Below are positions 27,982 through 64,000 of a DNA stretch of 64,000 nucleotides, one piece after another. Positions within the stretch are counted from its first letter, which is position 1. Each line of letters starts with the position of its first letter. Made by a program: the position numbers and the translations under genes. The DNA is from SAR86 cluster bacterium (GTDB lineage Bacteria; Pseudomonadota; Gammaproteobacteria; Magnimaribacterales; D2472), in NCBI GenBank assembly GCA_023703615.1, contig CP097971.1, positions 918,315 to 982,314 on the forward strand, read 5' to 3'. Under the pieces are notes generated by a model. It saw only the letters and a list, made by a program, of their open reading frames with translations, had not been told where the DNA came from and ran no database searches.

Positions 27982-27989
27982 TAAACTAT

Positions 27990-34588: not shown

Positions 34589-35659
34589 ATGAAAAAAATT
34601 GCTCTTATAACTGGTATAGCTGGTCAAGATGGAGCCTATCTAGCTAGGTATCTCTTAAAGAAAGGTTACGAGGTACATGGAGTCAAGAGACGAGCCTCAT
34701 CGTTTAATACCAAGCGTGTTGATGATATTTATGATGATCCAAACGAAAGCAATGTAAATTTTTATATGCATTATGGAGACCTTACTGATGGATCAAATCT
34801 CATTAGATTAATACAAGATATTCAGCCAAATGAAATATACAATCTTGCAGCACAATCACATGTACAGGTGAGTTTTGAAACTGCTGAATATACTTCAAAT
34901 GCAGATGCAATAGGAACGCTTAGAATTCTTGAAGCGATTAGAATTTTAGGTTTAACTGATAAAACCCGTTTTTATCAAGCCTCAACTTCAGAGTTATATG
35001 GAAAGGTTCAAGAAGTACCGCAGTCTGAAAAAACACCATTTTATCCAAGATCACCATATGCAGTAGCGAAACTATATGCATATTGGATAACTGTCAATTA
35101 TAGAGAGGCTTATAATATTCATGCGTCTAATGGAATTCTTTTTAATCATGAAAGCCCTATAAGAGGGGAAACATTCGTAACTCAAAAAATAGCCATGGCG
35201 GTGGCCAATATTCATTTGAAAAAACAAAGCTGCCTATTTCTTGGCAATCTTGATGCCAAAAGAGATTGGGGCCATGCCAAAGACTATATTGAAGGAATGT
35301 ATAAAATAGTTCAAAACAATGAGGCAGATGACTTTGTTCTTGCTACAGGAAGAACTGAAACAGTAAGAAAGTTTGTTGAGATGGCTTTTAAGCAAATTAA
35401 TAAAGTTATAGATTGGAGCGGTTCTGAAGTTGACGAAATTGGAAAAGATTCGCAGACAGGAGAAACGCTTGTTCAAGTATCACCAAAGTATTTTAGACCA
35501 ACAGAAGTAGATATTTTAATAGGTGATCCGTCAAAAGCTAAAAATATTTTAGGGTGGAAGGCAAAAACTTCTCTTGAGGATATTGTTGAAGAAATGGTTC
35601 GCTACGCCATCATTAACAGCAACTCCACAAAAGAAAAAAATCAATTAGCTGATTTTTAA
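34589..35659 (+). CDS. gmd: GDP-mannose 4,6-dehydratase
   Basis: '[37 protein letters not shown]', '[10 protein letters not shown]' and '[15 protein letters not shown]'. Confidence 0.95.
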
Positions 35660-38609: not shown

Positions 38610-38631
38610 GGAATTTATATTATGTAATATT

Positions 38632-39399
38632 TTATTGTAATTCTTTATTCTTCTTGAAGGCAAAAATATATTGACCAAATCGATTTAGTATTTTTTTTAG
38701 TAAAAATAAAAATATATTAAATTTTATTTTATTTTTCTTAAAGGATTTTATAACTTCTAAATTTTGGTTAAAGATACTTCTGATGTTACCATTTGAAGCT
38801 CCACCAACCCTCATTCTTACAAGAGTCTCAGGTATATATTTTGTCTTAATTTTGTCTATTTCCATTAATTTTGACATTAATTCAACATCTGCAGAAACTG
38901 AATATACTATATCGAATCTATTTTTTCCTAAAATTGAAGTCTTAATGTAAAAAGTTGGATGAGGTGGAGACCAGCCTAGTCCAAAACTTCCTTCAAGAAA
39001 ATCATTAGATTTCCAATATCTAATAACCTTATCATTATCCTTATCTACATATACCAAATCAGAAAAGCATGCATCTATGTTATCTGTTAAGGCTGATACA
39101 ATTAGGTGGACAGCTTCATTTGTGAAAAATGTATCATCAGAATTAAGGAACCCAACTATTTCTCCAGTTGCATTGTTCAACCCTTTATTCATTGCGTCAT
39201 AAATTCCATTATCAGGCTCTGAAATAACTTTAATATTTTTGTTGTCAAAATTATCAATGATTTGCATGGTACTGTCTGTTGATTGACCATCAATAATAAT
39301 ATGCTCTATATCTTTATATGATTGATTTTTTACCGAATTTAAAGTGTCGAGTATGGTTCTTTCACTATTGAAAGTTGATGTGATTATTGAGACTTTCAT
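38632..39399 (-). CDS. family 2 glycosyltransferase
   Basis: 'VSIITSTFNSERTILDTLNSVKNQSY...IIIDGQSTD', 'DNGIYDAMNKG' and 'FLNSDD'. Confidence 0.85.
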   Translation of the reverse strand: MKVSIITSTFNSERTILDTLNSVKNQSYKDIEHIIIDGQSTDSTMQIIDNFDNKNIKVISEPDNGIYDAMNKGLNNATGEIVGFLNSDDTFFTNEAVHLIVSALTDNIDACFSDLVYVDKDNDKVIRYWKSNDFLEGSFGLGWSPPHPTFYIKTSILGKNRFDIVYSVSADVELMSKLMEIDKIKTKYIPETLVRMRVGGASNGNIRSIFNQNLEVIKSFKKNKIKFNIFLFLLKKILNRFGQYIFAFKKNKELQ

Positions 39400-50801: not shown

Positions 50802-51692
50802 TTAGTTACTCTTTTTATAAGCAATAGCGAAAAGGGTATCTGATGTTTTGTTTTTTTCGTGCCAATTACAATAAGATTTATTTAAATCAGAGTCATATCT
50901 CGATGCATATTTTATATGTCCGCCAGGCTTTCTATCATTAAGCCAACCAAAATGATTCTGAAATCCATATCTTTGAATAAATGAGATATCGATGTTCTTG
51001 AAACCAGAGGCACTAATAATCTTTTCTAATGAATCTTCAGTATGGAGAACTAGATGCTCATTCCAAAATGTAAAATCTCTAAACTCAGGCAGATTAACAT
51101 TTTTAATTAAAAAATCGTTTGCATGAGGAACTTCTATAACAAGCATAGCCCCTGGACACATTTTATCATGCAAGATTTTAAGAAAATCAATTTGATTCGG
51201 TATATGCTCTAAAACATGAAACATGGTTAAGATATCAGGTTTATCTTCAACGAATTTTACGTCTTTATGAACTTTTACGCCTAAGTTGTTTTCTACATAT
51301 TTAACTGCAGCTAAATTTAATTCAGCTCCTTCTATTTTTTTTGAAGCCTCTTTAGCAAGATTAAGAAAGCCGCCCCATTCAGAACCAACATCCAGAATAT
51401 ACTCTGAATTTTTTATAAATCCTTTTAAATATTCAAATCTTCTAAGATCATCTTCAAAATATCCATTCTGATTAAAATAGGAATCAAAACCTGCTGCTCC
51501 AGGAGACTCAATATAGTGATCTTCAATGATATTGAATTTTTCTAGAAAAATTACTCCAGATGATTCATCGATGAGAACATTAAAACTACCATCTCTTGTT
51601 TTATCATGAAGTAATTTAATTGTATTTGGATTAATAGCCTTAACATTTTCAAGGTCACTAAATACAGGATTTGTTATGTTAAAATTTTTCAT
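50802..51692 (-). CDS. class I SAM-dependent methyltransferase
   Basis: 'ILDVGSEWGGFL' (motif I), 'PDILTMFHVLEHIPN' and 'MCPGAMLVIEVP'. Confidence 0.75.
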   Translation of the reverse strand: MKNFNITNPVFSDLENVKAINPNTIKLLHDKTRDGSFNVLIDESSGVIFLEKFNIIEDHYIESPGAAGFDSYFNQNGYFEDDLRRFEYLKGFIKNSEYILDVGSEWGGFLNLAKEASKKIEGAELNLAAVKYVENNLGVKVHKDVKFVEDKPDILTMFHVLEHIPNQIDFLKILHDKMCPGAMLVIEVPHANDFLIKNVNLPEFRDFTFWNEHLVLHTEDSLEKIISASGFKNIDISFIQRYGFQNHFGWLNDRKPGGHIKYASRYDSDLNKSYCNWHEKNKTSDTLFAIAYKKSN

Positions 51693-52770
51693 CTTTAATT
51701 GAATTATACTCTTCCTGATTGCCTATATCTTTCCAATCTTCATGCATTGGGTACGCAATAGTCCTTAAGCGATCTTTTTTCATATCTAAAAATAAATTTG
51801 GCATATCCTTCCTTGATCCGTCAAGATAATTAAAAATGCCAGGATTAAGCATATAAATTCCAGTATTTATGTAACTAACGTATACTGGTTTTTCTTCAAA
51901 ACCAATAATATCTAGATCATGAGTACTAACCACACCAAAATCACTTTGTACTTCATGCGGTCTCACAACCATCGTTGCATCTGATCTTTGTTTTAGATGG
52001 AAAGAAATTAATCCTTCAAAGTTTACAGAGGTTATTATGTCTCCATTCATAACCAATAATGGCCCATTCACTTTGTTTCTTAGATGGTATAAGCATCCTG
52101 CAGTTCCAAGTGGTTTATTTTCTTCAACATACGTTATTTCAACATCAAGAATTGACCCGTCTTTGAAGTAGTCTTTAATGTGATTCGCAAGATAATTTAC
52201 AGAAATAAATATTTTGTTATAACCATACTTTTTTAAGTTATTAATTATTATTTCAAGCATTGGTTTGTTATTTATTAAAAGCATTGGTTTAGGACAGTTT
52301 TTGGTTAAAGGCATAAGTCTTTTTCCCATGCCCCCTGCCATTATTAGTGCAGACCTTTCAATATTGTTGTCTATGCTTTCTTTATTTTCAAAATTATTAA
52401 TTTTAAAAACTAGTTCTACTATCCTACCTTTTTTATCTAATATCGGCAGTGAAGACACTTGGTGTTTGTTTATGTAATCTATGCACTCTTTATCTGAAGT
52501 CACTTTATTTAGAAATTTCGGAGTTGCTTGCATTGCTTCACAAACACTTGACTTTACATCAAACCCACCCAAGAGAGATCTCCTAATATCTCCATCAGTT
52601 ATTGATCCACAAAGTTTAAAATCATCTTTTGATACCACATAAACAATTTTTTTGTTTTTATTTAGGGTTTTAATTGCATCAATTATTTTTTTATCTTCAG
52701 TGATAAGAAAATCTTTAGTTGGTAAGTCTTCAACTGAGATCCTTGATAAAGATGACATTATTGAAACCAT
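51679..52770 (-). CDS. CBS-pair + sugar-1-phosphate nucleotidyltransferase fusion (PtmE-like architecture)
   Basis: N-terminal CBS pair ('CGSITDGDIRRSLLGG'), then 'ALIMAGGMGKRLMPLTKNCPKPML'. Confidence 0.8.
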   Translation of the reverse strand: MVSIMSSLSRISVEDLPTKDFLITEDKKIIDAIKTLNKNKKIVYVVSKDDFKLCGSITDGDIRRSLLGGFDVKSSVCEAMQATPKFLNKVTSDKECIDYINKHQVSSLPILDKKGRIVELVFKINNFENKESIDNNIERSALIMAGGMGKRLMPLTKNCPKPMLLINNKPMLEIIINNLKKYGYNKIFISVNYLANHIKDYFKDGSILDVEITYVEENKPLGTAGCLYHLRNKVNGPLLVMNGDIITSVNFEGLISFHLKQRSDATMVVRPHEVQSDFGVVSTHDLDIIGFEEKPVYVSYINTGIYMLNPGIFNYLDGSRKDMPNLFLDMKKDRLRTIAYPMHEDWKDIGNQEEYNSIKDEKF

Positions 52771-53969
52771 CCATCCTTGACATTACCTTTCAAAGTCATT
52801 TTTTTTCTGATGAGGTCCTGATTCAAATCAATTTCTGCTAAGACTTTTGCAATTTTTGGTCCTGCATCTCCCATCCAGTATGGATTGTCTCCTTTTCGAC
52901 ATAAATCCCTAAAATTTTCATCAAAAAGGCATTTTTTAATAGCTTCCTGTAAATCAGATGAAGAATAATTACAATCAATAACATTGACACCCCTTAATCT
53001 TCCATCCTGTCTTGAGCCAATATTTACGGTTGGGCATGAAAAGGCTGGCGTTTCTTTTAAACCAGAAGAAGAGTTACCCACACAGGCAACTCTAACACCT
53101 TGTTCAGATAAAGATAATATTCCATGGTATAAATATCTTCCTAAAGATCTATGGACTTGGATGTTGCTATTAGATGATTCTGAGAATTCATTAATTCTTT
53201 GAATAATTTGTTTTCCTCCAGCATCATTATTTGGATAAGTAATTATAATTTGAATGTCTTCATTAGAAAGTCTAGCTAGTCCTTCGAGGCATGGATTTAT
53301 CTGATCAACAGATTGATCAAACTCTGTAGTGACAGAGTGTTGTGTAAATAAGATAATTGGTTTATTTAAATCAAGATCAAGCTCTGAAACTATTTCATCT
53401 TTGGTAGCAAAATTGTTCTCAGATATTAAATCAATAGCAGGAAATCCAACGGTGTGAACTCTCCATTCCTCTTCTCCAAGACCCAAAATTCTATTGGATG
53501 CTTCTTGGTTGGTTGTAAAGTGAATATGAGATAATTTTGTCATTGCATGCCTTACAGAATCATCAAGAGCACCTCCCTCTGTGATATCACCACCTTCAAT
53601 GTGCGCAGTAGGTATATTCATTTGAGAGGATGCTATAACAGCTGCCAACCCTTCAAATCTATCTGCATAGACAACCATAATATCTGGTTTCATTTTTGCT
53701 AATACCTTGCTAATTTCTAATATGCCAGATCCTATTGCTTGGGCAGTTGCAAATAATGTTTTTGCATCCATCTCAATTTTTATTTCAGCATCTATTTCGA
53801 ACCCATCTGAACGTATTTCTTGCAAAGTTTTTCCAAAGTTTTTATCCAAATGAGCTCCAGATACCAATAACTTATGTTCGAGATCAGGATGTTTTTTTAC
53901 CGCTCTAAGAATCGGAAACTGAAGTCCGTATTCAGCCCTGTTGCCTGTAAAAATTGCTATTTTGCGCAT
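52758..53969 (-). CDS. neuC: hydrolysing NDP-N-acetylhexosamine 2-epimerase (NeuC/LegG family)
   Basis: 'RKIAIFTGNRAEYGLQFPILRAV', 'RHAMTKLSHIHF' and 'VGNSSSGLKE'. The symbol is family-level only. Confidence 0.85.
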   Translation of the reverse strand: MRKIAIFTGNRAEYGLQFPILRAVKKHPDLEHKLLVSGAHLDKNFGKTLQEIRSDGFEIDAEIKIEMDAKTLFATAQAIGSGILEISKVLAKMKPDIMVVYADRFEGLAAVIASSQMNIPTAHIEGGDITEGGALDDSVRHAMTKLSHIHFTTNQEASNRILGLGEEEWRVHTVGFPAIDLISENNFATKDEIVSELDLDLNKPIILFTQHSVTTEFDQSVDQINPCLEGLARLSNEDIQIIITYPNNDAGGKQIIQRINEFSESSNSNIQVHRSLGRYLYHGILSLSEQGVRVACVGNSSSGLKETPAFSCPTVNIGSRQDGRLRGVNVIDCNYSSSDLQEAIKKCLFDENFRDLCRKGDNPYWMGDAGPKIAKVLAEIDLNQDLIRKKMTLKGNVKDGWFQ

Positions 53970-53982
53970 GAGTGTTTTGCAA

Positions 53983-54798
53983 TTAAGTGTAAATTTTATC
54001 TATTATATCTTTAAATACATTGTCAGGCATCCAATTAAAATCTTTATTAGCCTTTTTTATAGATAAAATATTGCATGAAAGATGATCTATTTTTTTTGTC
54101 TCTATAATCTTTTCAAATTTATGATCAAATTTTGTGTTTAGTGTATTAATTATTTCATGAACTGATGTTCCAAATCCTGATCCAACATTATAAATAGTAT
54201 TCTTGGTTCTCCCTGACAGAATAACTAACTCTATAAATTTACTTACATCATTTACATGAATGTAGTCTCTAATTGAAGTTGTATTTAAGATTGTTAAATC
54301 TTGATTTTTATTGTCTATAAATTTTTTTATATGCCCCAAAACATTTTTTTTATGCATTCCTTTGCCGATAACATTTGATAGTCTTAAAACCATACCTCCA
54401 TTTTTAAGAACAGTTTTCTCATTTATTAACTTAAGTTTTGAGTAAGGGTCATTACAAAAAACTTTACTATCTTCATCATAAGGGGTAATTGATTTGTCAC
54501 CATAAACAGATCCTGATGAAAAATATATCAACTTATTCTTCAGTACTTTGGATAAATTTTCTATATTTTGTTTTAACTTTTTACATAATTGATCATCGTA
54601 AATATGTTTTAAAGAGGGTTCGGATAGATGAATAAAAAATGAACATTCATCAATAAAATCATTTGTATCTAAATCAAAGCTAGATTTATCTTGAGCAAAA
54701 AAATGTTTTATCTCAAATTTTTTTTTTAAATGGCGGTCAAAATTAGATCCAAGAAATCCTGATGAGCCTGATATATAGATTTTCAATTTCTTCACCAA
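53983..54798 (-). CDS. short NAD(P)-dependent epimerase/reductase (SDR)
   Basis: 'IYISGSSGFLGSNF' and 'YSKLKLINE' (YxxxK). 271 aa. Confidence 0.7.
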   Translation of the reverse strand: MVKKLKIYISGSSGFLGSNFDRHLKKKFEIKHFFAQDKSSFDLDTNDFIDECSFFIHLSEPSLKHIYDDQLCKKLKQNIENLSKVLKNKLIYFSSGSVYGDKSITPYDEDSKVFCNDPYSKLKLINEKTVLKNGGMVLRLSNVIGKGMHKKNVLGHIKKFIDNKNQDLTILNTTSIRDYIHVNDVSKFIELVILSGRTKNTIYNVGSGFGTSVHEIINTLNTKFDHKFEKIIETKKIDHLSCNILSIKKANKDFNWMPDNVFKDIIDKIYT

Positions 54799-55841
54799 AT
54801 AACATCTTCTTTTTCAATATGATGATCTTTTGTAAAGTCATTAACTGCAAGCTTTCCAAGTACATCATTATATCTATCAGCTTTCATACCTTTATTGCCT
54901 GGTCTTTTGACCCAAATATTTTCTTTTGTAAACTTTTCGCCTTTCTTAATGGGCTTTATTGTGACAATTGTAGAAAATGCAAAATCCATTGTAACCTGCT
55001 CTTCTTTTACTGGGCCTTTTGTTCCTCCTCTTTCTTCAAATAAAAGATTGGCTCCAAAAATTAAATCTTTTAAAGCAGATGGATCCATTGAGCATACAAT
55101 ATCCGGTCCTTCTCTTGTCATTGTATCCGTAAAATGTTTTTCAAGAATAGATGCACCAAGTGCAACAGCGCCAAAACATGAATGATTTGTTGTTGTGTGG
55201 TCTGATAAACCATAAACAATTCCAGGAAACTTTTGAGAAATCTCTTGCATTGCTCCAAGTCTTACTAATCTTGGTGGAGTGGGATATAAATTTGTTGTAT
55301 GTAAAACAGCATACTCAATACCTGCATCTTCAAAAATTTTTATTGATTTTTCAACTTCCTTCATTGTATTCATGCCAGTGCTTAAAATTATTGGTTTTTT
55401 AAAGCTTGCGATGTACTCTAACAAAGGATAGTTGTTGCATTCTCCTGAGCCTATTTTAAATGCAGGCACTTTCATTTTGATTAATCTATCTACAGCTGCT
55501 CTTGAAAAGGGAGTACTAATAAATATCATTCCTTTATCTTCAATATATTCTTTTAATGCGAACTCCTCATCTTCAGATAAAGCGCAATCTTCCATGATTT
55601 TATATATAGATTTATCACTATTGCCAGGAATGACCTTTTTTGCCTGTGCGGACATTTCATCTGAAATAATGTGAGTTTGATGTTTGATAACTTCGACCCC
55701 AGTAGCCGCAGCAGCATTAACTATCTTATATGCCTCTTCTAAAGATCCATTATGGTTAATTCCCAACTCTGCAATAACTAGTGGTTTATGATTTATGCTT
55801 ACTTTTCTATCTAAAATATTAACTTCTCGTATTTTTGTCAT
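54792..55841 (-). CDS. neuB: nonulosonic acid synthase, NeuB family (copy 1) with C-terminal SAF domain
   Basis: 'IAELGINHNGSLEEAYKIVNAAAATGVEVIKHQTH', 'LSDHT' and SAF 'IKPIKKGEKFTKENIWVKRPG'. Substrate (Neu/Leg/Pse) not resolvable. Confidence 0.9.
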   Translation of the reverse strand: MTKIREVNILDRKVSINHKPLVIAELGINHNGSLEEAYKIVNAAAATGVEVIKHQTHIISDEMSAQAKKVIPGNSDKSIYKIMEDCALSEDEEFALKEYIEDKGMIFISTPFSRAAVDRLIKMKVPAFKIGSGECNNYPLLEYIASFKKPIILSTGMNTMKEVEKSIKIFEDAGIEYAVLHTTNLYPTPPRLVRLGAMQEISQKFPGIVYGLSDHTTTNHSCFGAVALGASILEKHFTDTMTREGPDIVCSMDPSALKDLIFGANLLFEERGGTKGPVKEEQVTMDFAFSTIVTIKPIKKGEKFTKENIWVKRPGNKGMKADRYNDVLGKLAVNDFTKDHHIEKEDVIW

Positions 55842-56541
55842 TGTCTTGTTTCCATAATTTATTGTTTGAATAATATCTAGCTAACTCTAAATCATGATGT
55901 GTGTCTATATCAAGACATTCGATATCATTATTTAGAATATATGGTATTGTTTGATCTGTAAAAAAAGATTTATTTTGAATTAATGCTTTTTTGTATGTTA
56001 AGTAGATATTGCCATTTACAACATATGCAGGATCTAAGTCTTGTGATCTTGTATTAAGACCATGATCCTCAAGATAAGTTTCAAGATACTCATTTGAATA
56101 CTTAAATGTCCATTTGGGATGAGAGTGAGTTAAATTAACACTTATTACACTTTTACAATTCTTGTTTATTAATAGATCAATAGCTTTCAATATTGAGGAT
56201 TTTTTTCTAAAGGGGGATGTGGGTTGTAATAATAAAATTGCATCAACCTCATTTATATTAGATTCATACCAATTTAATGCATGAATCACAACATCTACAC
56301 TTGAAGCCTCATCAGATGAAAGATTTTTTGGTCTAACAAATGGAGCAAGCAATCCCAGATCCTTTGAATGATTTATGATTTCTTTTGAATCAGAAGTTAC
56401 AATTGTATCGACCACATGATCAATATTTCTTACAACGATTGAAGCTCTTTCAATTAATGATTGTCCATTAATGTATTCTAAATTTTTTTTTGGTAATCTT
56501 TTTGAGCCGCCTCTTGCTGGAATTACACATAAAATTTTCAT
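55819..56541 (-). CDS. neuA: CMP-nonulosonic acid synthetase (acylneuraminate cytidylyltransferase family)
   Basis: 'ILCVIPARGGSKRLPKKN' and 'LLQPTSPFR'. The symbol is family-level only. Confidence 0.85.
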   Translation of the reverse strand: MKILCVIPARGGSKRLPKKNLEYINGQSLIERASIVVRNIDHVVDTIVTSDSKEIINHSKDLGLLAPFVRPKNLSSDEASSVDVVIHALNWYESNINEVDAILLLQPTSPFRKKSSILKAIDLLINKNCKSVISVNLTHSHPKWTFKYSNEYLETYLEDHGLNTRSQDLDPAYVVNGNIYLTYKKALIQNKSFFTDQTIPYILNNDIECLDIDTHHDLELARYYSNNKLWKQDNDKNTRS

Positions 56542-57173
56542 GATATAAAAGCCTTAAGAATTTCTAGTCCCGCTTCTCCACTTTTCTCAGGATGAAACTG
56601 GGTTCCAAAGATATTATCTTTTTTTATTGCAGCGATAATCTTTGCATCGTAGTAATCTAAAGTACATAATTCAATATTTTTATTCTCAGGCTGAACACCA
56701 TATGAATGAGCAAAATACATATGCTTATCTGAAACCTTATTAATTATTTTTGAAAATTCTGTTTCTTCAGATAATGTCCATACTATCTTATACCAACCCA
56801 TTACAGGTATTTTATAATCATCTGCAAAATCACAAAAATTTTCTAACGGAAGTATTTTTCCTTTAAGAATTCCTAAACCGATGTTTTTTCCACCCTCATC
56901 TCCATGTTCAAAAAATAATTGAAGTCCCAAGCAAATGCCAAGAATTTTTTTATTGCTGTTTGCAGCTTCAATAAGGGCCTCAAATAAACCAGTTCTCTTC
57001 ATATGTCTCACTGCAACAGAAAAAGATCCCATACCTGGAACAATAATATATCTTATTCCATCAAGATCACTTTTTTTACTGGCAAGAACAGGCTCGCAAT
57101 TTATTGCCTTAATAGCTCTAAATATATTCTTTTGATTGCCTGCTCCGTAATCTATTACAGCAACTTTTTTCAT
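56538..57173 (-). CDS. hisH: HisH-like glutamine amidotransferase (glycan-cluster paralogue)
   Basis: 'VAVIDYGAGNQKNI', 'GICLGLQLFF' and 'FGTQFHPEKS'. Confidence 0.85.
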   Translation of the reverse strand: MKKVAVIDYGAGNQKNIFRAIKAINCEPVLASKKSDLDGIRYIIVPGMGSFSVAVRHMKRTGLFEALIEAANSNKKILGICLGLQLFFEHGDEGGKNIGLGILKGKILPLENFCDFADDYKIPVMGWYKIVWTLSEETEFSKIINKVSDKHMYFAHSYGVQPENKNIELCTLDYYDAKIIAAIKKDNIFGTQFHPEKSGEAGLEILKAFIS

Positions 57174-57176
57174 TTC

Positions 57177-57935
57177 TTATCGGACATTGATTGAATTTTG
57201 TCTTGACCAAGATTTAATATCACTTATTTTGCCTCTTTTATAATGCAGATAATCAGCAATTCCAATACCTTGGACGTTATAAACAGAAACTAATTCATGA
57301 ATATTCTTTGGATTATTAAACCCGCCACAAAAAATTACTGGTACATTAGCAACTTTTATGTAGTTTGCTAGCTTTAAGTCAAAACCCTTTTTTGTTCCCT
57401 CATTATCAACAGAAGTTATAAAGATTTCTCCAACTCCTTTATCTTGTAGTATTCCCATCCATTCATTAATTTCAATTCCTGTATTTTCTCTTCCAGATTC
57501 AGTAACAATTTCCCATCTATCATCATTTATGCATTTTGCTTCAATTGAGCCAACTACAGATTGACTTCCGAAAAGTTCAGCAAGTTTTTCTATAAGTTTG
57601 GGGTTTCTTACAAAAGCTGTATTTAAGGCAACTTTATCAGCTCCTTTTTTGAAAAGATAAACTGCATCTTCAACAGACCTTATTCCTCCTCCAACAGTAA
57701 CGGGAATAAAAACTTCGTCAGTAATAAGTTCTAGGAAATCACCTAAATGATTTTGATCATATAGGCTTGCTACAGCATCATGAAAAAAAAGCTCGTCGGC
57801 ACCATTTTTATAATATCTAATTGCTGACTCAAATGGATCACCTACAATACGAAGTCCTTCCAATTTTATACCTTTAATTAATTTACCAGACTTTATATCA
57901 AGCCTAGGAATAATACGAATATTAGATTTTGACAC
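57177..57935 (-). CDS. hisF: HisF-like cyclase subunit (glycan-cluster paralogue)
   Basis: 'IIPRLDIKSGKLIKG', 'GADELFFHD' and 'VGGGIRS'. Confidence 0.85.
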   Translation of the reverse strand: MSKSNIRIIPRLDIKSGKLIKGIKLEGLRIVGDPFESAIRYYKNGADELFFHDAVASLYDQNHLGDFLELITDEVFIPVTVGGGIRSVEDAVYLFKKGADKVALNTAFVRNPKLIEKLAELFGSQSVVGSIEAKCINDDRWEIVTESGRENTGIEINEWMGILQDKGVGEIFITSVDNEGTKKGFDLKLANYIKVANVPVIFCGGFNNPKNIHELVSVYNVQGIGIADYLHYKRGKISDIKSWSRQNSINVR

Positions 57936-57940
57936 TTTTA

Positions 57941-59107
57941 TTAATCTTTATTAAATACAGTATTCTTAAGATTCCATTTGTTATCTTTCTTTTCCCAAAG
58001 ATGATCACTCCTCCATGAATCTATAACATCATTAAACTGCTGTTCTGTTATTCCGGCATATTCTAAAAATATCTCATAATATTTTTTAGGGAATTCGCCA
58101 TCATATTTTTTAACTAAAGCAACGCCCTCTTCCCTACTTAAATAACCATCCCTGATTTCATGAGCAGCATCAGAGGTGCACCTCCCATGACCGAACTTAA
58201 TGTAGGCAAGATAAAAATGAAAGCCATCCAATTGGTCATCCAGGCTGGCGTATTTTGTAAAAGTGCCTTCGCTTCTTTCAGGGTTTAAATTAAAGCCTGT
58301 ATGTTCTAATGAGTAATAAAAATTTTCTTGAGGGACCCACTTATGATAGTAGCTAAAAAAATGTTGCTCGATGTTAAGTTCTTTTAAACCTTTAAGCTCA
58401 TCATTAGATAAAGAATATCTTTCAAGATCTTTTGACTTAATACCGTACTTCGCAAAAAATTCTGGAAAAATTCCTGAGAATCTATGATTAACAAAGTCTT
58501 TGTAACCAAGGCTTGGCCTATCTGACATATCCATTGAGCCACCATACTCAACCTCGCCGTCCTCTCCATAAAATACTAATGGAATTTTATATTGAATGGC
58601 AACTCTGAAAGGTGCTGAATACTGACCAAAAATAAATGGCTGGAATGGATCTCCCATTTCCAAAAATGCTGCTTTGGTCATCAATCTGTGAACAGCTCCA
58701 TTTGGCGTCACCAAAATATTATCAAAACCAGAATCTATAAAAGATGTTAGGTTTTCTCTTCCAATTTCTGTATAAATATGTGGGGCCCAGGTTACAGTTA
58801 AAGGTGTCATGCCATATTGATCTTTAAGCATGTGTGCAACATAATTACTATCCTTACCTCCACTGCCTGGAACTACCACATCATGAGAGCCATCACAACT
58901 TCTGTGTTTATCACATAGGCTTTCTAGCTCTTTCTTTCTTTTATCCCAGTTAATACCAGTATTTTTATGGTCAGCAAACTGGCATGCAGAGCAAACACCG
59001 TCATCATTAAATGATATTCTAGGTCTTTGATTAGAAATTACACACCTTGTACAGTACTCGACTTTTTCTGGTAAATTATAAAGCTCTTTAGGGTTTCTAT
59101 TTTTCAT
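57941..59107 (-). CDS. N-acetyl-sugar amidotransferase (PP-loop ATPase; WbpG/PseA-like)
   Basis: 'YCTRCVISNQRPRISFNDDGVCSACQF' Zn-ribbon and 'VPGSGGKDS' PP-loop. Confidence 0.85.
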   Translation of the reverse strand: MKNRNPKELYNLPEKVEYCTRCVISNQRPRISFNDDGVCSACQFADHKNTGINWDKRKKELESLCDKHRSCDGSHDVVVPGSGGKDSNYVAHMLKDQYGMTPLTVTWAPHIYTEIGRENLTSFIDSGFDNILVTPNGAVHRLMTKAAFLEMGDPFQPFIFGQYSAPFRVAIQYKIPLVFYGEDGEVEYGGSMDMSDRPSLGYKDFVNHRFSGIFPEFFAKYGIKSKDLERYSLSNDELKGLKELNIEQHFFSYYHKWVPQENFYYSLEHTGFNLNPERSEGTFTKYASLDDQLDGFHFYLAYIKFGHGRCTSDAAHEIRDGYLSREEGVALVKKYDGEFPKKYYEIFLEYAGITEQQFNDVIDSWRSDHLWEKKDNKWNLKNTVFNKD

Positions 59108-59116
59108 TTTGGCACC

Positions 59117-60532
59117 TTAATAATATTCTTTTATTTTTTTGGTTATCTCGTTGATCCTTAAATTATTATTAAATGTTGGAAAGGATATGCCTCTTGAAGA
59201 AATATCTTTTGTAATAGGGCATGGATTTTTAGCAAACTGTTTATAGGGAGGCATATCAGACAAAGGATAAAAAAATCTTCTAACATCTATTTTAATTGCT
59301 TGCATTTTTTCATATAGTCGCTCCCTGTTTTCTGAAGAATCAGTTAGCGCACATGCTAGCCAAACTACTCTAGTTCTTCCAGGAATATTCTCTTGAAATG
59401 AAAGGTTCATATCAACATTGCTAAATAGTTCTCTATACTTTTCTTCATGATCTGCTCTAATTTTTAGCATATAATCTATTCTTTCAAGTTGAGCTACACC
59501 TATTGCAGCTTGTGTATTTGTTAATCTAAAATTAAAGCCGGGATGTTCATGCCAATATTTTTTCTCTTTTGACATGCCATGATTTTTCAAAATATTCATC
59601 TTTTCTAAAATTTCTTTAGAGTTAGTTGTGCACATCCCACCCTCACCAGTAGTCATTATTTTGTTAGCAAAAAATGAAAAACAGCCAATAGTACCAATGC
59701 TACCAACAGGTACATTATTAAAACTTGCTCCATGTGCCTCAGCACAATCTTCTATAATTGGAATATTATATCGCTTACCTATTTCACATATTTTATCCAT
59801 CGAAGCAGGTTGACCATATATATGAACAGGAATTATAGCGGATGTTTTTTTTGTTATAGCCTTTTCAATTTCATTAGGTGAAATACACCAACTATTTTCT
59901 TCAATATCCACTATTACAGGAGTTGCTCCAACATGTATTACTGCATTTATGGTAGCTGCAAATGTTAGGTCTGGGATTATAACTTCTGAACCTGCACCGA
60001 CTCCAATTGATTTGAGGGCTAGCTCCAATGCAATTGTGCCATTACATACAGAGGTGCTGTAATCAGTATTACAATATTTTGCAAAATTATTCTCAAGCCT
60101 ATTAATATATTCACCGGTACTCGAAATCCAGGTACTTAGGAAGGCATCGGTTAGATATTTTAATTCATTACCATAAAGATCAGGTGTGGCAACTGGTGTC
60201 ATTGGTATGTGATTATAAGAAGCAAAATCAACTACATGTTGGCTCTGATCGACAATAGGAATAATTTTTATTTCATCACTCAGCCTGCTCAAAACTTTAT
60301 TTGCATCATCATCAGTGGTGGCAAAAGTATAATTTTTATTAATAACATTTTTAATAGGAGAGGATAAATCATGTCCATTGAGCAATGATCTTCTTAAGTC
60401 ACCATCTGTTATAACACCTATGAGAATATTTTGATCATCAACAACAAAGCATGTTCCGTGCCCATTCTTATCTATCTTATGAAATACATCTCTTATAAGA
60501 ATATCTGATTTACAAACCAAGTCTTGTATCAC
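59117..60532 (-). CDS. CBS-pair + DegT/DnrJ/EryC1-type NDP-sugar aminotransferase fusion
   Basis: The first ~110 aa form a CBS pair ('IGVITDGDLRRSLLNG'). The remainder reads 'GNELKYLTDAFLSTWISSTGEYINRLENNFAKY...CNGTIALELAL...FFANKIMTTGEGG'. Confidence 0.85.
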   Translation of the reverse strand: MIQDLVCKSDILIRDVFHKIDKNGHGTCFVVDDQNILIGVITDGDLRRSLLNGHDLSSPIKNVINKNYTFATTDDDANKVLSRLSDEIKIIPIVDQSQHVVDFASYNHIPMTPVATPDLYGNELKYLTDAFLSTWISSTGEYINRLENNFAKYCNTDYSTSVCNGTIALELALKSIGVGAGSEVIIPDLTFAATINAVIHVGATPVIVDIEENSWCISPNEIEKAITKKTSAIIPVHIYGQPASMDKICEIGKRYNIPIIEDCAEAHGASFNNVPVGSIGTIGCFSFFANKIMTTGEGGMCTTNSKEILEKMNILKNHGMSKEKKYWHEHPGFNFRLTNTQAAIGVAQLERIDYMLKIRADHEEKYRELFSNVDMNLSFQENIPGRTRVVWLACALTDSSENRERLYEKMQAIKIDVRRFFYPLSDMPPYKQFAKNPCPITKDISSRGISFPTFNNNLRINEITKKIKEYY

Positions 60533-61374
60533 AATAACTCCATTAAGATATTGTAAGAATCAGTTAATCCTTCAATATCATTGTTTATTTCTAAGGTAAA
60601 CGTTTTATCTTTTAGGTTAGAAGCTAGTAAGGCATTATGAATTTTACTTCCTTTTTTAAGTCTCTTATTTTCATCACTTACTCCATTATTATCGCTTATA
60701 TGAATATAGTCTGTTAATTGACTTAACAAATTAAATTCCTGATCAAAATCTTTACCTAAGGTGTTGCAACTAACATAAAGATGACCGATGTCTAAAAGCA
60801 AATTAAAATCTAGTTTTGATTTCATTGCCTCAACATCTTCATAACTTGTTAAAAGAAAGCAATTTTGATTACCAAAGTTAGAATAATTATTCATAGACAC
60901 TACATTGTTCTCGATATAAAGCCTAATACCATCTTGTACATCTATATTTTTAAACCTTTCAATAAATCTATTATTAGCTTCTTTTCTATCAAATAAATCT
61001 CTTCCCATAACAGATTTTCCAATTTCACTGGTGCTTATGTCAATCAAAAAACCTGCATGAAAACCATATTCAGTAGCGCCAAATATTTTAGATAATTTGA
61101 TAGATTCATTGATAATATTGATTGTTTTACTATATATTTCGTCTGAATCAGATGCTAGGTTCATAACAAAGTGTTCTTCTGGAGGTGGAAAATAATTATG
61201 ACACCTATAATTTAAATTAAACTTTTCTTTGAGATCATGTAAGTGTTTTATATATCTTGAATCCCTTTCAGTTCCACCGCTGAGCTCAATATTTTTAAAG
61301 CCATTTTTTGCAAGTGTTTCTACACTTTGCCAAATGAATTGGTTTTTGACACATGATGAGGATACATAAATCAT
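60529..61374 (-). CDS. xylose-isomerase-like TIM-barrel (sugar phosphate isomerase/epimerase family) protein
   Basis: 'GFKNIELSGG', 'YGFHAGF', 'YIENN', 'LLLDIGHL' and 'IHISDN', spaced as in AP_endonuc_2 barrels. Confidence 0.6.
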   Translation of the reverse strand: MIYVSSSCVKNQFIWQSVETLAKNGFKNIELSGGTERDSRYIKHLHDLKEKFNLNYRCHNYFPPPEEHFVMNLASDSDEIYSKTINIINESIKLSKIFGATEYGFHAGFLIDISTSEIGKSVMGRDLFDRKEANNRFIERFKNIDVQDGIRLYIENNVVSMNNYSNFGNQNCFLLTSYEDVEAMKSKLDFNLLLDIGHLYVSCNTLGKDFDQEFNLLSQLTDYIHISDNNGVSDENKRLKKGSKIHNALLASNLKDKTFTLEINNDIEGLTDSYNILMELL

Positions 61375-61386
61375 AAAATTAATGCC

Positions 61387-62157
61387 TTACTTAAATTCGT
61401 GAATAAAGGATTCGATATCTTCTATTGAGTTTGCTTCTTTAACCACGCCACTATTTAGTTTAAATTTTGCTCCATCAAAGGGAGGAAAATACATTGCTCT
61501 AATAAATCTGCTAGCTTCCTCATAAGTTGTATCTTTTGTCTTTAATACACCTCCAAAAGGTAAATCACGACTAAAATAGTGTTTAGATTTATCAATTTCT
61601 AATTTTTGTTTAACGCCGCGGTAACCAGATATGTATAATTTTAAAGCATTTGGTAACATTTTGATAGCCAAGCTTACAAGTCGATGGTAAAGAGAATAGG
61701 CTGTGTCTGAAGGAAATATCTCAGTGGTTTCTTGCATAATGATATTTCCGTTATCAACCTCTTTAACCATTTCATGAATTGATATGCCTGATAACTTCTC
61801 ATTATTAATTATTGCCCAAGGAGAAGAAAAGGTTCCTTTATAATGTGGCAATAGAGATGGATGAATATTTAAACATCCTAATTTTGCTAAAGAAAGTATA
61901 TGTTCCTTAATGATGTATCTGTAGTAACAAGAGAGGATAATATGTGGGCTAAACTTAAATACTTCATTCTCAAAATTATTAATATTTTTATCTATACACT
62001 TTATATTTAACTTTGAGCACTCCTGAATAATTTTTTTGCTGTCTGAATTAGCATGAGTGAAAACTAAAACTGAATCCTTATCAACAAAACTTTCAGATAA
62101 TAATAAAAGTAAAGCCTCATGACCAGCCCTATGATTTGCACATAATACAATTCTCAT
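61387..62157 (-). CDS. formyltransferase-family protein, probable NDP-amino-sugar N-formyltransferase
   Basis: 'LNIHPSLLPHYKGTFSSPWAIINNE' (HPSLLPxxxG motif). 256 aa, with no Fmt C-terminal tRNA-binding domain. Confidence 0.8.
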   Translation of the reverse strand: MRIVLCANHRAGHEALLLLLSESFVDKDSVLVFTHANSDSKKIIQECSKLNIKCIDKNINNFENEVFKFSPHIILSCYYRYIIKEHILSLAKLGCLNIHPSLLPHYKGTFSSPWAIINNEKLSGISIHEMVKEVDNGNIIMQETTEIFPSDTAYSLYHRLVSLAIKMLPNALKLYISGYRGVKQKLEIDKSKHYFSRDLPFGGVLKTKDTTYEEASRFIRAMYFPPFDGAKFKLNSGVVKEANSIEDIESFIHEFK

Positions 62158-63206
62158 TCAATAATTAAATCATCAATTGAGTAATCCCTAGTTGCTGTTA
62201 AGCCAAATAAATCATTGAGATATATTGCTGGAATACCTTCTCCACCTGATCTTTTACAGCCAAGATTTTTATCGTTTAATATGTCCCCTTTTTTTATAGG
62301 CTGTAAAGCTACGATAGATTTCTGCAATGAGGCTCTTGTTCTTATTTCTGATATGGTTGGCATTTTTAATGAGGACCCCATAATCACTTCTGCAGATCTA
62401 ATAGATTTTACAAATTTGATAAGTTCTTCTGGGTCAAGGGATGCAGAGTGATCTGGTCCTGGCAAGTTTTTGTCAAGAGTAAAATGCTTTTCAATCATTA
62501 CTGATCCTATTCCAACGGATAGTTGTGAAGCCTGTATACCAATAGAATGATCAGAAAAACCTACCAAACAATCAAAATTATCTTTAAAAGTATTTATAAC
62601 ATTAAGATTTACTTCAGAATCATCAAGTGGATAATTTGAGGTGCATTGAAGCAATACAATATCTTTGTTTATATGCTTTAATTCATTAAGTAACAAACTT
62701 ATCTCAGACATATGGGTCATACCTGTAGATATAATTAATGGTTTATTTTGCATTGCTATCGTTTTGATGAATTCAATATTTGTAGTATCTGTGGAGGCTA
62801 TTTTATATGCAGCAAGATCAAGTTTTATTAATTCTTTAAAACTATCATAATCAAAAGGAGTAGTTAGAAATATTAATCCAGCTTCTTCGGATTGTTTTTT
62901 CAATTTCTCAGCTGATTCAATGTTTAATTCTAATTCTTTTAACATCTGATATTGTGTTTTATTTGATTTAAGAGCAGTTTTCTGATAATCAGCCATATCT
63001 ACATCTTTTAGAATTAGAGAATCAGCTTTGAAACTTTGAAACTTTATTGCATCAGAACCTGACTCTGCTGCAACATCAATCATCTTATAAGCCATATCCA
63101 TATCACCACAGTGATTAACACCAGCTTCAGCGATTATAAATACATTACTATCTTCACTGACTGTTTTGTTGCCAATTTGAAAAGATTTATTAAAGTGTTT
63201 TTTCAT
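62154..63206 (-). CDS. neuB: nonulosonic acid synthase, NeuB family (copy 2) with SAF domain
   Basis: 'IAEAGVNHCGDMDMAYKMIDVAAESGSDAIKFQSF', 'FSDHS' and SAF 'LQPIKKGDILNDKNLGCKRSG'. Confidence 0.9.
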   Translation of the reverse strand: MKKHFNKSFQIGNKTVSEDSNVFIIAEAGVNHCGDMDMAYKMIDVAAESGSDAIKFQSFKADSLILKDVDMADYQKTALKSNKTQYQMLKELELNIESAEKLKKQSEEAGLIFLTTPFDYDSFKELIKLDLAAYKIASTDTTNIEFIKTIAMQNKPLIISTGMTHMSEISLLLNELKHINKDIVLLQCTSNYPLDDSEVNLNVINTFKDNFDCLVGFSDHSIGIQASQLSVGIGSVMIEKHFTLDKNLPGPDHSASLDPEELIKFVKSIRSAEVIMGSSLKMPTISEIRTRASLQKSIVALQPIKKGDILNDKNLGCKRSGGEGIPAIYLNDLFGLTATRDYSIDDLIIE

Positions 63207-64000
63207 TATTTTACTTGTTGAAGGGTATTGTTTTTAAGTTCAAATATCTCATCACAGTATTTCTCAAGGAGAATTTTATCATGAGACACAATTAGAATAG
63301 ATTTATTATGAGATAAGTTTTTTAGATTTGAAAGCATTATATTTGCAGTATGTTTATCTAGAGAACTAGTTGGTTCATCAAAAAGTAAAAAATCTTTATC
63401 ATGATATATTGCCCTTGCAACACAAACACGCTGTCTTTGTCCTCCTGATAATTGTTTACCGCCAACACCTACAATAGTTTTTAAATTTTTTTTGGATTTA
63501 TGAGTAAAATCAAATCCTGATAATTCTAATGCTTTTTTTACCTTATTCTCATCATAAATATCGCTTAATGCCACATTCTTACTTAATGTATCATCGATCA
63601 TAAATGATTCTTGAGGACATATATAAACTCTGTCATTTGAAAAAGTGTAATTATTTTTTTCTTTGTCTAATAAAAGAACTTCTCCATGAATTGGATTAAT
63701 GAGACCAGATAATATATTTATTAGTGTTGATTTCCCTGAACCAGATTCACCAAATATTCCAGTTAATTTACCTATCTTAATATCTAGATTTATGTCCAAA
63801 AGTACTTTTTCATCACTGTTGGCGTACGCAGAGGAAACATTTTTTAAAGAGATAGAGTTACATCTTCCGTCATCCTCACTAAGCATAGTATTATTATTTG
63901 ACTTATTATTTGATAGGGGGTAATTCTGATTAAATTCATCATAAAGGACATTAATTGAATTTGAACAATATCTAATTTTATTTAATCCAAGAACAATCTG
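63206..64000 (-). CDS. ABC exporter, ATP-binding C-terminal domain (5' part beyond window; probably fused TMD-NBD)
   Basis: Walker A 'GESGSGKST', signature 'LSGGQRQR' and Walker B 'LLFDEPTS'. The minus-strand frame stays open from 63886 to the window end. Confidence 0.85.
   Translation of the reverse strand, partial: QIVLGLNKIRYCSNSINVLYDEFNQNYPLSNNKSNNNTMLSEDDGRCNSISLKNVSSAYANSDEKVLLDINLDIKIGKLTGIFGESGSGKSTLINILSGLINPIHGEVLLLDKEKNNYTFSNDRVYICPQESFMIDDTLSKNVALSDIYDENKVKKALELSGFDFTHKSKKNLKTIVGVGGKQLSGGQRQRVCVARAIYHDKDFLLFDEPTSSLDKHTANIMLSNLKNLSHNKSILIVSHDKILLEKYCDEIFELKNNTLQQVK

Follow-up and report, generated by a model that had tools for sequence, protein, structure and literature searches.

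A 64,000-nucleotide stretch of a SAR86 cluster bacterium genome (contig CP097971.1, positions 918,315 to 982,314 of the forward strand; hereafter the window) contains, at 51679-63206, two genes for NeuB-family synthases of nonulosonic acids (NulOs). These sugars occur on capsules, O-antigens and flagella, where they shape phage adsorption, grazing resistance and immune recognition, and genome surveys usually predict the type of sugar from NeuB phylogeny together with the neuraminic (Neu), legionaminic (Leg) or pseudaminic (Pse) acid gene sets. The explanation that we favour, with a probability of about 60%, is that two independent NulO cassettes are joined here in one co-directional string, each making its own sugar by its own proposed route: cassette A around the synthase NeuB1, and cassette B around NeuB2. 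The single-copy genes of the interval are read as two disjoint enzyme sets because each set travels with its own NeuB type elsewhere. The substrates and products, like the activity of a TIM (triosephosphate isomerase)-barrel protein in cassette B, are predictions from sequence.

A first-pass annotation of the window had listed two synthases with only one NeuC-like, one NeuA-like and one aminotransferase gene, and had proposed either that two different 5,7-diamino NulOs are made with shared enzymes, or that one synthase acts on an N-formyl or acetamidino precursor. The genes that it named all lie where it placed them, on the minus strand, their domain families were confirmed by profile search, and the count of one NeuC, one aminotransferase and one NeuA-like gene holds within the interval. 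It did not mention the WbuX/HisF/HisH acetamidino trio (56538-59107) between the two synthases, nor, in the window but outside its interval, a PglF-like 4,6-dehydratase and the gmd/fcl pair on the plus strand, both of which probably contribute to the pathways. Just outside the window, ~3.4 kb upstream of NeuB2, there is another, divergent CTP_transf_3 gene. The last 11 kb of the window is base-for-base identical to contig CABZQH010000001.1 (assembly GCA_902527795.1; L001), from which 9.2 kb past the window end was read (the CTP_transf_3 gene is at L001:5943-6632).

No hexapeptide/PglD_N, GNAT (LegH/PseH) or PseG-type gene was found in any open reading frame (ORF) of at least 120 residues from 34.6 to 64 kb, nor in the 9.2 kb beyond the window, and the earlier list of missing acetyltransferase and PseG genes stands over this whole range. 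On the LegB model TIGR04180 (cut-off 475 bits) the best score in the window or upstream flank was 111 bits, for a short-chain dehydrogenase/reductase (SDR) of 315 residues. The sequence beyond 64 kb adds no acetyltransferase or Leg/Pse dehydratase, full Leg and Pse sets were not found, and the locus is non-canonical, as had been suspected, with no canonical Neu, Leg or Pse gene set. Both substituents that had been suggested, N-formyl and acetamidino, are predicted here as well, with the formyltransferase motifs present and WbuX above its model cut-off.

The two synthases are 31% identical, and both keep the catalytic, metal-binding and phosphoenolpyruvate (PEP)-binding residues of Neisseria meningitidis NeuB (NmNeuB; K53, Q55, K129, S132, S154, Y186, S213, H215, H236, D247 and R314). 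They score just below the cut-off of the N-acetylneuraminate synthase model TIGR03569 (382.7 bits for NeuB1 and 375.9 bits for NeuB2, against 399.65) and at 225 and 257 bits on the PseI model TIGR03586 (cut-off 340.25). Neither is a PseI, nor does either group with the PseI structure 8h2c, and a clean placement of the pair as LegI and PseI was not obtained. The scores just under the TIGR03569 cut-off would suit a locus in which one synthase gene is decaying or functionless and a single NulO is made. A pseudogene or recent duplicate was nevertheless rejected for either gene, given the low mutual identity, the different clades, the intact frames, the full set of catalytic residues and the exact copies of both proteins that recur on many independent marine contigs, and we find this explanation hardly credible.

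NeuB1 is 58% identical to NmNeuB (1xuu; 439 bits) and groups with it in a neighbour-joining tree of 91 sequences. It is identical to NmNeuB at 17 of 18 tabulated substrate- or PEP-contact positions and also in the 70-85 loop, to which a published comparison attributes the specificity for sugar positions C4-C6 (PMC7371886). NeuB2 has no such near relative: Bacillus subtilis SpsE (196 bits), a PseI structure (184 bits) and NmNeuB (168 bits) are roughly equidistant from it, and among GTDB representatives its best match is 46% identical. In the tree it falls inside a clade, called Leg-type after the gene neighbours of its members, which sit with LegC-, NeuC/LegG- and PtmE-like genes, and its 70-85 loop is the version of that clade. 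Within it, NeuB2 belongs to a distinct sub-clade tied to the TIM-barrel gene: it is 51-53% identical to, and forms a clade with, the synthases found beside a TIM-barrel gene and a CBS-aminotransferase gene in Vibrio, Geovibrio, Halarcobacter and Aliarcobacter. The synthases of five cassette B loci fall in this one clade.

Loci with cassette A were found through close relatives of NeuB1 (64-69% identical; 65-66% for the synthases of the same block in L087 and L090). They carry a fixed block of 4,6-dehydratase, NeuB, SDR (252-288 residues), NeuC and CBS-nucleotidyltransferase, with HisF, HisH, WbuX and CMP (cytidine monophosphate)-synthetase genes alongside, in marine contigs with flanking housekeeping genes (L087-L089, L099) as well as in loci of Bradyrhizobium type (L090, L100). 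The PtmE-like CBS-nucleotidyltransferase is constant across the copies, WbuX is part of the cassette in L087-L090, and the short SDR always lies between the NeuB1-type gene and NeuC. No copy (L087-L090, L099, L100) has an aminotransferase or acetyltransferase within the block. In five of the six other copies the dehydratase directly precedes NeuB. The dehydratase of the window is a displaced member of cassette A, being 52% identical over 395 residues to the gene directly preceding the NeuB1-type gene in L088; its STDKA...MMGASK motif is presumably that of retaining PglF/CapD-type enzymes. The dehydratase slot is occupied by a Polysacc_synt_2 enzyme in the marine contigs and by a true LegB in Bradyrhizobium L090 (TIGR04180, 525 bits against 475), and because non-orthologous enzymes fill it, dehydration appears to be integral to cassette A. 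The short SDR itself is not LegB (35 bits on TIGR04180). Its GxxGxxG and YxxxK motifs are conserved with the orthologues in L088 and L090, so the enzyme should be active, and it is probably the 4-ketoreductase of the cassette. The occurrence of WbuX together with HisH and HisF paralogues in one cluster marks an acetamidino system.

In the route proposed for cassette A, N-acetylglucosamine linked to a nucleoside diphosphate (NDP-GlcNAc) would be made with the PtmE-like enzyme and dehydrated at C4/C6 by the PglF-like enzyme, after which the short SDR would reduce the 4-keto group, with no transamination. NeuC would hydrolyse and 2-epimerise the reduced sugar nucleotide, NeuB1, with its Neisseria-type site suited to N-acetylmannosamine (ManNAc), would condense the free sugar with PEP, and WbuX, HisH and HisF would turn the 5-N-acetyl group into acetamidino. 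This would yield a NulO bearing a 5-acetamidino group and a 7-hydroxyl, in its simplest form a 9-deoxy (3,5,9-trideoxy) sugar. In other genomes the acetamidino trio belongs to cassette A, and the product predicted for cassette B would offer it no N-acetyl target.

A Polysacc_synt_2 dehydratase followed by a 4-reductase is also the known two-step route to N-acetyl-D-quinovosamine linked to uridine diphosphate (UDP-D-QuiNAc; WbpM/WbpV type). Cassette A might then make ordinary sialic acid, with NeuC, NeuB1 and the CMP-synthetase giving CMP-N-acetylneuraminic acid (CMP-Neu5Ac) or its 5-acetamidino form from UDP-GlcNAc, and with the dehydratase and SDR employed in a separate UDP-QuiNAc pathway. 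The active site of NeuB1, essentially identical to that of a proven Neu5Ac synthase even near C6 of the sugar, fits this well, and QuiNAc accompanies the trideoxy sugar in the Fusobacterium nucleatum O-antigen. It is harder to reconcile with the constant position of the SDR between NeuB and NeuC, with a dehydratase directly before NeuB in most copies and with the LegB-type NulO enzyme that occupies the slot in Bradyrhizobium, and it leaves the PtmE-like gene without a role. Moreover, we know of no report of 5-acetamidino-Neu, in a literature that we have not searched exhaustively. On balance a sialic acid product seems rather unlikely.

Cassette B is conserved separately. In 10 of 10 loci, the window included, the NeuB2-type gene lies one or two genes before the TIM-barrel gene, which in turn lies directly upstream of the aminotransferase gene; a CMP-synthetase gene usually follows. 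The aminotransferase is a DegT protein of 467-489 residues, with a CBS Pfam match in 7 of the 10 loci, and the CBS-fused form was found only next to the TIM-barrel gene in the loci examined. What varies is the acyltransferase between the NeuB2-type and TIM-barrel genes. A formyltransferase fills this slot in Vibrio sp. Of14-4 (L093), a metagenome (L096) and another marine single-cell genome (L097), and a PglD-like acetyltransferase fills it in Nitrospinaceae (L047), Halarcobacter (L091), Geovibrio (L092) and Aliarcobacter cryaerophilus (L094), while the Parvicellaceae locus (Bacteroidota; L101) has no acyltransferase. The swap supports the earlier idea of formylation in place of acetylation.

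The two cassettes are also independent of each other. No NeuC, LegB or PtmE gene lies within 10 kb of cassette B in L047, L091, L094 or L097, and neither NeuC nor PtmE is present at L101 in the 1.8 kb upstream and the 10 kb downstream that were read. NeuC occurs near cassette B only together with a second NeuB, namely in L092 and L093 (each with a second NeuB/NeuC/NeuA set that has its own CMP-synthetase), in L096 (NeuB fragments and NeuC) and in the window. These distributions speak against the shared enzymes envisaged in the first-pass annotation: the NeuB1 type is accompanied by NeuC, the short SDR and the PtmE-like gene, and the NeuB2 type by the aminotransferase, acyltransferase and TIM-barrel protein. 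Nor are two 5,7-diamino products expected, cassette A being without an aminotransferase and that of cassette B being nearer to GDP (guanosine diphosphate)-perosamine synthase than to Leg-cluster enzymes.

The same distributions bear on a single integrated network of legionaminic type. Here the dehydratase, aminotransferase, formyltransferase and NeuC would together produce 2-acetamido-4-formamido-2,4,6-trideoxymannose from GDP- or UDP-GlcNAc, and one or both synthases would convert it to Leg5Ac7Fo or Leg5Am7Fo, the second NeuB being a specialised or redundant paralogue. Such a network would account for the tight, co-directional packing of the genes, the PtmE-like gene, the acetamidino genes between the two halves, the score of the aminotransferase on a LegC model, the place of NeuB2 in the Leg-type clade with a Leg-type loop, and the nearest solved relative of NeuC, the GDP/UDP-diNAcBac hydrolysing 2-epimerase 5zlr (252 bits). 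It is contradicted by copies of cassette B that stand alone, by cassette A blocks lacking an aminotransferase, by the sugar-binding residues of NeuB1, which are those of a ManNAc enzyme, and by the likeness of the aminotransferase and formyltransferase to GDP-perosamine enzymes. We therefore judge an integrated network unlikely, and return to two separate cassettes.

Three lines of evidence (aminotransferase, formyltransferase and gmd) suggest that cassette B may start from GDP-mannose rather than GlcNAc. The best PDB matches of the aminotransferase are the perosamine synthetases 3dr7 and 3bn1 (283 bits). It is 41% identical to Per of Escherichia coli O157 (from the Sakai genome) and 45-48% identical to the other cassette B aminotransferases, all of which are sister to O157 Per in a neighbour-joining tree; aminotransferases of Leg clusters are 25-40% identical to the window protein and separate in the tree. 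JGI and Tara annotations likewise call it perosamine synthetase (K13010). The formyltransferase has the catalytic Asn-x-His, the SLLP motif (LNIHPSLLP) and the Asp (VDNG), and among solved structures scores highest against the Brucella GDP-perosamine N-formyltransferase WbkC (5vys; 135 bits), followed by ArnA (86 bits) and PseJ (44 bits). The acceptor of the alternative acetyltransferases was not separable in this way: the L091 enzyme matches PglD (88 bits) and PerB (76 bits) too closely to distinguish UDP-bacillosamine from GDP-perosamine, and it is only 26% identical to O157 WbdR. Finally, gmd (596-604 bits) and fcl accompany cassette B in four of the nine other loci. They immediately precede it in L092 and L093 and immediately follow it in L097, whose gmd is 58% identical to that of the window (34589-35659); in L094 they are nearby, with ManC, PMM and Gmm, and in the SAR86 genome ManC lies past the window end (L001). 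Cassette B probably draws its GDP-4-keto-6-deoxymannose from the window gmd.

The TIM-barrel protein has no NCBIfam match and no PDB sequence match at E ≤ 0.01. In the searched collection its family counts ~2,100 members, each representing a 90%-identity cluster; many are ~50% identical to it, and Halarcobacter, Aliarcobacter, Vibrio, Geovibrio and Bacteroidota are among the named carriers. Nine residues are invariant in an alignment of 33 sequences (H59, H106, E155, D195, H198, H225, D234, N236 and E262). Motif by motif, they match eight of the nine metal ligands of endonuclease IV (H69, H109, E145, D179, H182, H216, D229, H231 and E261), with H231 replaced by N236; the comparison is by motif and not by superposition, and is suggestive rather than proof. 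The corresponding motifs in E. coli endonuclease IV and the TIM-barrel family are NFHPG/GFHAG, VIENT/YIENN, IDTCH/LDIGH, MHLND/IHISD, DRH/DEN and ILET/TLEI. In an AlphaFold (AF2) model with a predicted local distance difference test score (pLDDT) of 94.5, the ligand residues lie at the corresponding strand ends. Because eight of nine ligands are kept, the protein is a candidate GDP-sugar hydrolase, and because it is the only cassette B gene without a step, and free-sugar release the only step without a gene, it is the candidate for that release. A multi-metal phosphoesterase site suits sugar-nucleotide hydrolysis, and we put the odds of this activity at about even.

In the route proposed for cassette B, ManC and Gmd would supply GDP-4-keto-6-deoxymannose, the CBS-aminotransferase would convert it to GDP-perosamine, the formyltransferase would N-formylate this, and the TIM-barrel metalloenzyme would release the free sugar. 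No 2-epimerisation would be needed, since N-acyl-perosamine already has the manno configuration. NeuB2 and PEP would then yield 7-formamido-3,7,9-trideoxy-D-glycero-D-galacto-nonulosonic acid, a Kdn (3-deoxy-D-glycero-D-galacto-nonulosonic acid)-type analogue of legionaminic acid with a 5-hydroxyl, which would be CMP-activated. More tentatively, with somewhat less than an even chance, cassette B would represent a new route from GDP-mannose through N-acyl-perosamine to a new class of 7-acylamido-3,7,9-trideoxy, 5-hydroxyl NulOs, the TIM-barrel protein being a new NDP-sugar hydrolase that replaces NeuC or PseG. No report of a 7-acylamido-3,7,9-trideoxy 5-hydroxy NulO was found in the open-access literature, nor, on the cassette, perosamine-derived NulOs, SAR86 or Pelagibacter NulOs or Arcobacter flagellin sugars, anything relevant beyond a trideoxy sugar of F. 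nucleatum; to all appearances cassette B has no earlier description.

A synthase, a phosphatase and a CMP-synthetase make up the Kdn route of Bacteroides thetaiotaomicron, and this parallel raises the question of whether cassette B has two products. GDP-N-formylperosamine would then be used directly by a glycosyltransferase, as in Brucella, and NeuB2, a TIM-barrel phosphatase and the CMP-synthetase would make Kdn or a similar acid from a sugar phosphate. The endonuclease IV-like metal site suits a phosphomonoesterase as well as a diesterase, and the aminotransferase and formyltransferase are similar to enzymes that make a directly used product. Yet the order NeuB, acyltransferase, TIM barrel, aminotransferase is fixed across at least five phyla while the type of acyltransferase varies, the CBS-fused aminotransferase keeps to the side of the TIM-barrel gene, and in Halarcobacter cassette B is the only sugar pathway beside the flagellin and Maf genes. 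The Leg-type C4-C6 loop of NeuB2, too, fits a 4-acylamido-6-deoxy sugar. Two separate products are accordingly quite improbable.

Several observations weigh against the scheme of two cassettes with the products proposed here. Arg314 of NmNeuB, which we take to contact the N-acetyl group of ManNAc, has its equivalent in NeuB2, and this lends no support to a 2-hydroxy substrate. The aminotransferase reaches 333 bits on the LegC model TIGR04181, below the cut-off of 420, and its likeness to Per depends on one reference together with sequences labelled by context. Glycan loci commonly contain gmd and fcl, whose adjacency could reflect mere GDP-fucose synthesis. For the TIM-barrel protein, Foldseek places the epimerase-like archaeal protein MJ1311 first (template modelling (TM) score 0.72) and endonuclease IV at 0.61-0.65, with ketose epimerases and isomerases close behind. 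The top match is thus epimerase-like, and the fold search fails to separate epimerase-like from endonuclease IV-like relatives. The hhalign comparison of the family with E. coli endonuclease IV gave only a partial alignment at 11% probability, and the protein may be an epimerase or isomerase. In cassette A, the dehydratase and SDR could make UDP-QuiNAc, leaving Neu5Ac to NeuC and NeuB1; the Bradyrhizobium loci have a Per/LegC-like DegT gene 8 kb upstream, with FkbH and an acyl carrier protein, and an amino group may be supplied from outside the block. The interval has only one canonical CMP-synthetase, similar to the enzymes of both cassettes. In every carrier, finally, the products of both cassettes are predicted from genes alone.

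Assigning this CMP-synthetase to a cassette by similarity gave an ambiguous result: its identity is 40% (147 bits) with the L097 enzyme of cassette B, and 33-35% (112-129 bits) with those of cassette A in L088 and L090. The second CTP_transf_3 protein upstream is no clear cassette B orthologue, being ~25% identical to everything and divergent from both cassettes. One CMP-synthetase may serve both sugars.

If the two cassettes act as their gene content suggests, surveys based on NeuB phylogeny and known gene sets misclassify a sizeable group of loci, and the TIM-barrel family would gain its first function. If the new route proposed for cassette B is right, its sugar would be widespread on marine and host-associated cell surfaces and flagella, given carriers in SAR86, Vibrio, Halarcobacter, Aliarcobacter, Geovibrio, Nitrospinaceae and Bacteroidota. 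For SAR86, an abundant and uncultured marine clade, the genes suggest a surface glycan with two different acidic nine-carbon sugars, encoded in a variable island. Cultured carriers (Vibrio sp. Of14-4, A. cryaerophilus, Halarcobacter and Geovibrio) allow direct chemistry. The system is moderately interesting as it stands, and would be considerably more so with the cassette B product and the TIM-barrel activity confirmed.

The genes discussed are collected in Table 1. The interval, with all its genes on the minus strand, is the core of a ~39 kb surface-glycan island bounded by gmd at 34.6 kb and by Wzz ~9 kb beyond the window; housekeeping genes (PNP oxidase, IF3 and PheST) mark its left edge at ~34.5 kb. 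The G+C content of the window is ~30%, and contigs matching the window come from Tara and other marine metagenomes. Past the window end, L001 encodes Wzz, ManC, UDP-glucose dehydrogenase, GalE, an SGL protein, a family 2 glycosyltransferase (GT2), the divergent CTP_transf_3 protein, a 2-hydroxyacid dehydrogenase, a short-chain dehydrogenase and an ABC protein that enters the window. This last gene, complete at L001:8298-10001, has ABC_membrane and ABC_tran domains and scores below the cut-offs of the NCBIfam models MsbA (196 bits) and PglK (191 bits); it is likely a flippase for lipid-linked glycan.

Table 1. Positions of the synthase cassettes and associated genes in the window, with profile matches
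Feature	Position	Strand	Match or remark
gmd + fcl, at island edge	34589..36595	+	TIGR01472 572 bits; GDP-fucose synthase 509 bits
Polysacc_synt_2 (PglF/CapD-like) NDP-HexNAc 4,6-dehydratase	37422..38678	-	PF02719 129 bits
S-adenosylmethionine (SAM) methyltransferase, directly downstream of interval	50802..51692	-	Methyltransf_23 66 bits
PtmE-like CBS-nucleotidyltransferase	51679..52770	-	CBS + NTP_transferase
NeuC/LegG-type hydrolysing 2-epimerase	52758..53969	-	TIGR03568 388.2 bits, cut-off 235.9
Short extended-SDR, 271 residues	53983..54798	-	Epimerase family
NeuB1, cassette A synthase	54792..55841	-	PF03102 229 bits + SAF 36 bits
CMP-nonulosonate synthetase	55819..56541	-	CTP_transf_3 75 bits
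HisH-like glutaminase subunit	56538..57173	-	GATase; TIGR01855 177 bits, cut-off 105
HisF/WbuZ-like amidotransferase subunit	57177..57935	-	His_biosynth 186 bits; TIGR03572 WbuZ 231 bits, below 300 cut-off
WbuX-type N-acetyl sugar amidotransferase	57941..59107	-	TIGR03573 349 bits, cut-off 203
CBS pair fused to DegT aminotransferase, GDP-perosamine-synthase-like	59117..60532	-	DegT 376 bits + CBS
AP_endonuc_2 TIM-barrel protein	60529..61374	-	PF01261 52 bits
Sugar N-formyltransferase	61387..62157	-	Formyl_trans_N PF00551 88 bits
NeuB2, cassette B synthase (LegI-like clade)	62154..63206	-	PF03102 277 bits + SAF 26 bits
ABC permease/ATPase fusion, 3' part	63206..64000	-	PglK/MsbA-like; 567 residues in full; frame open to base 64000

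Other genes of the island hint at further elaboration of the glycan. There are four methyltransferase genes (36597-37397, 44059-44976, 46356-47201 and 50802-51692), two of them FkbM-type, which suggests a heavily O- or N-methylated product; the last, next to the interval, is a possible sugar-modifying enzyme. At 47804-50799, two adjacent proteins of 488 and 510 residues have only sub-threshold matches to Capsule_synth (PF05159) and Epimerase_2. By BLASTP neither is similar to the other, nor to the polysialyltransferase-like proteins of 468-472 residues encoded after cassette B in Vibrio and Geovibrio; the pair may be the two nonulosonic acid transferases. Upstream of the ABC flippase gene, at L001:4249-8314 (2.9-7.0 kb past base 64000), lies a group comprising the SGL/gluconolactonase-like, GT2, CTP_transf_3 (229 residues), D-2-hydroxyacid dehydrogenase and short-chain dehydrogenase genes, which could serve the activation of a third acidic sugar or an acyl substituent; in the Nitrospinaceae locus L047, adh_short, HpcH-like aldolase and CTP_transf_3 genes likewise precede cassette B. 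Across the PheST/IF3 housekeeping genes from the island, at 25841-29744, are YjbH and Wza-like Poly_export/SLBB genes. In L097 such a pair directly precedes Wzz and cassette B, and the export genes may have been split from the island in the SAR86 genome. Copies of at least seven of the proteins (both synthases, formyltransferase, aminotransferase, WbuX, CMP-synthetase and CBS-nucleotidyltransferase; clusters at ≥90% identity) are deposited under Candidatus Marinimicrobia/Neomarinimicrobiota metagenome-assembled genomes (MDA07537xx, on a 51.6 kb contig), either as mis-binned SAR86 DNA or through recent transfer of the island between phyla.

The surroundings of cassette B differ among its carriers. 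In Halarcobacter sp. (L091:1752-20852, on a complete contig of 3.27 Mb) it directly follows two flagellin genes and a gene for a 1077-residue Maf protein, and is itself followed by genes for an APS-kinase-like protein, a weakly matching formyltransferase, a methyltransferase, a PEP-utilizers/PPDK-like protein and a Peptidase_C26 glutamine amidotransferase. We take this set to resemble the O-methyl phosphoramidate genes Cj1415-1418 of Campylobacter jejuni, which hints at a phosphoramidate-modified flagellin sugar. In L096 (12254-13993 and 18569-19355) an AIPR (abortive-infection-type) gene lies inside cassette B, between the aminotransferase and the methyltransferase/CMP-synthetase genes, and the adjoining second NeuB is fragmented; loci for surface sugars may attract the insertion of defence genes and undergo decay. 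The minimal cassette B of L101 (703-4042; NeuB, TIM barrel and aminotransferase) is followed by a sulfotransferase and an asparagine-synthase-like gene, and its amino group may be free or otherwise modified.

Among known systems, the GDP-linked legionaminic acid pathway of C. jejuni comprises PtmE, LegB, LegC, LegH, LegG, LegI and LegF (Schoenhofen et al. 2009 as cited in PMC7371886). The SAR86 island resembles it in having a CBS-nucleotidyltransferase, a NeuC-type 2-epimerase, a NeuB-family synthase, a CMP-synthetase and an aminotransferase of the GDP-type family, and in the possible addition of an acetamidino group by a PtmG/WbuX-type enzyme. It differs in lacking LegH and a LegB that meets the model (111 against 475 bits), and its aminotransferase, which scores under the LegC cut-off, clusters with Per. 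Its NeuC and PtmE-like enzymes travel with a Neisseria-type NeuB and a short SDR rather than with an aminotransferase, and a TIM barrel sits in the cassette that holds the aminotransferase. The GDP-perosamine systems of E. coli O157 (Gmd, Per, WbdR), Brucella (Gmd, Per, WbkC) and Caulobacter (Per, PerB) share with the island gmd, the clade of the aminotransferase and, in WbkC, the nearest relative of the formyltransferase, and elsewhere the formyltransferase slot of cassette B is taken by a PglD/PerB-like acetyltransferase. Those systems use GDP-N-acylperosamine directly through glycosyltransferases, whereas the cassette B enzymes are interleaved with NeuB, the TIM barrel and usually a CMP-synthetase, and the aminotransferase, unlike Per, has an N-terminal CBS pair.

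NeuB1 resembles N. meningitidis NeuB (SiaC; 1xuu/1xuz) in sequence and in its SAF/AFP-like C-terminal domain, but it keeps company with a 4,6-dehydratase, a short SDR, a PtmE-like enzyme and acetamidino genes instead of SiaA, SiaB and SiaD. The O-antigen of F. nucleatum 25586 contains a 5-acetimidoylamino-3,5,9-trideoxy NulO (PMC7371886, PMC13014188), the only trideoxy NulO reported, and its 5-acetamidino, 7-hydroxyl, 9-deoxy pattern is the one predicted for cassette A. That sugar is tentatively L-glycero-L-gluco, implying a PseB/PseI-like route, whereas NeuC and a Neisseria-type NeuB imply the D-glycero-D-galacto series for cassette A. The TIM-barrel protein has the fold of endonuclease IV (Nfo) and of ketose 3-epimerases (TM 0.6-0.72), and an E-D-H-E core is common to it and the epimerases. 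It departs from endonuclease IV in the replacement of His231 by Asn and in a context of sugar biosynthesis rather than DNA repair. The lipopolysaccharide locus of Legionella pneumophila serogroup 1 parallels the SAR86 island in having two NeuB-family ORFs (ORF 9 and ORF 24), neuC/neuB/neuA, a PtmG-type amidotransferase and a methyltransferase (PMC3766260). There, however, the aminotransferase (ORF 21) and a NeuD acetyltransferase (ORF 22) adjoin neuCBA, and a TIM barrel, formyltransferase and short SDR are not reported for that locus (PMC3766260). With three NeuB paralogues in C. jejuni (PMC7371886), several such paralogues in one genome or locus are ordinary, and what differs in the SAR86 island is the content of each cassette.

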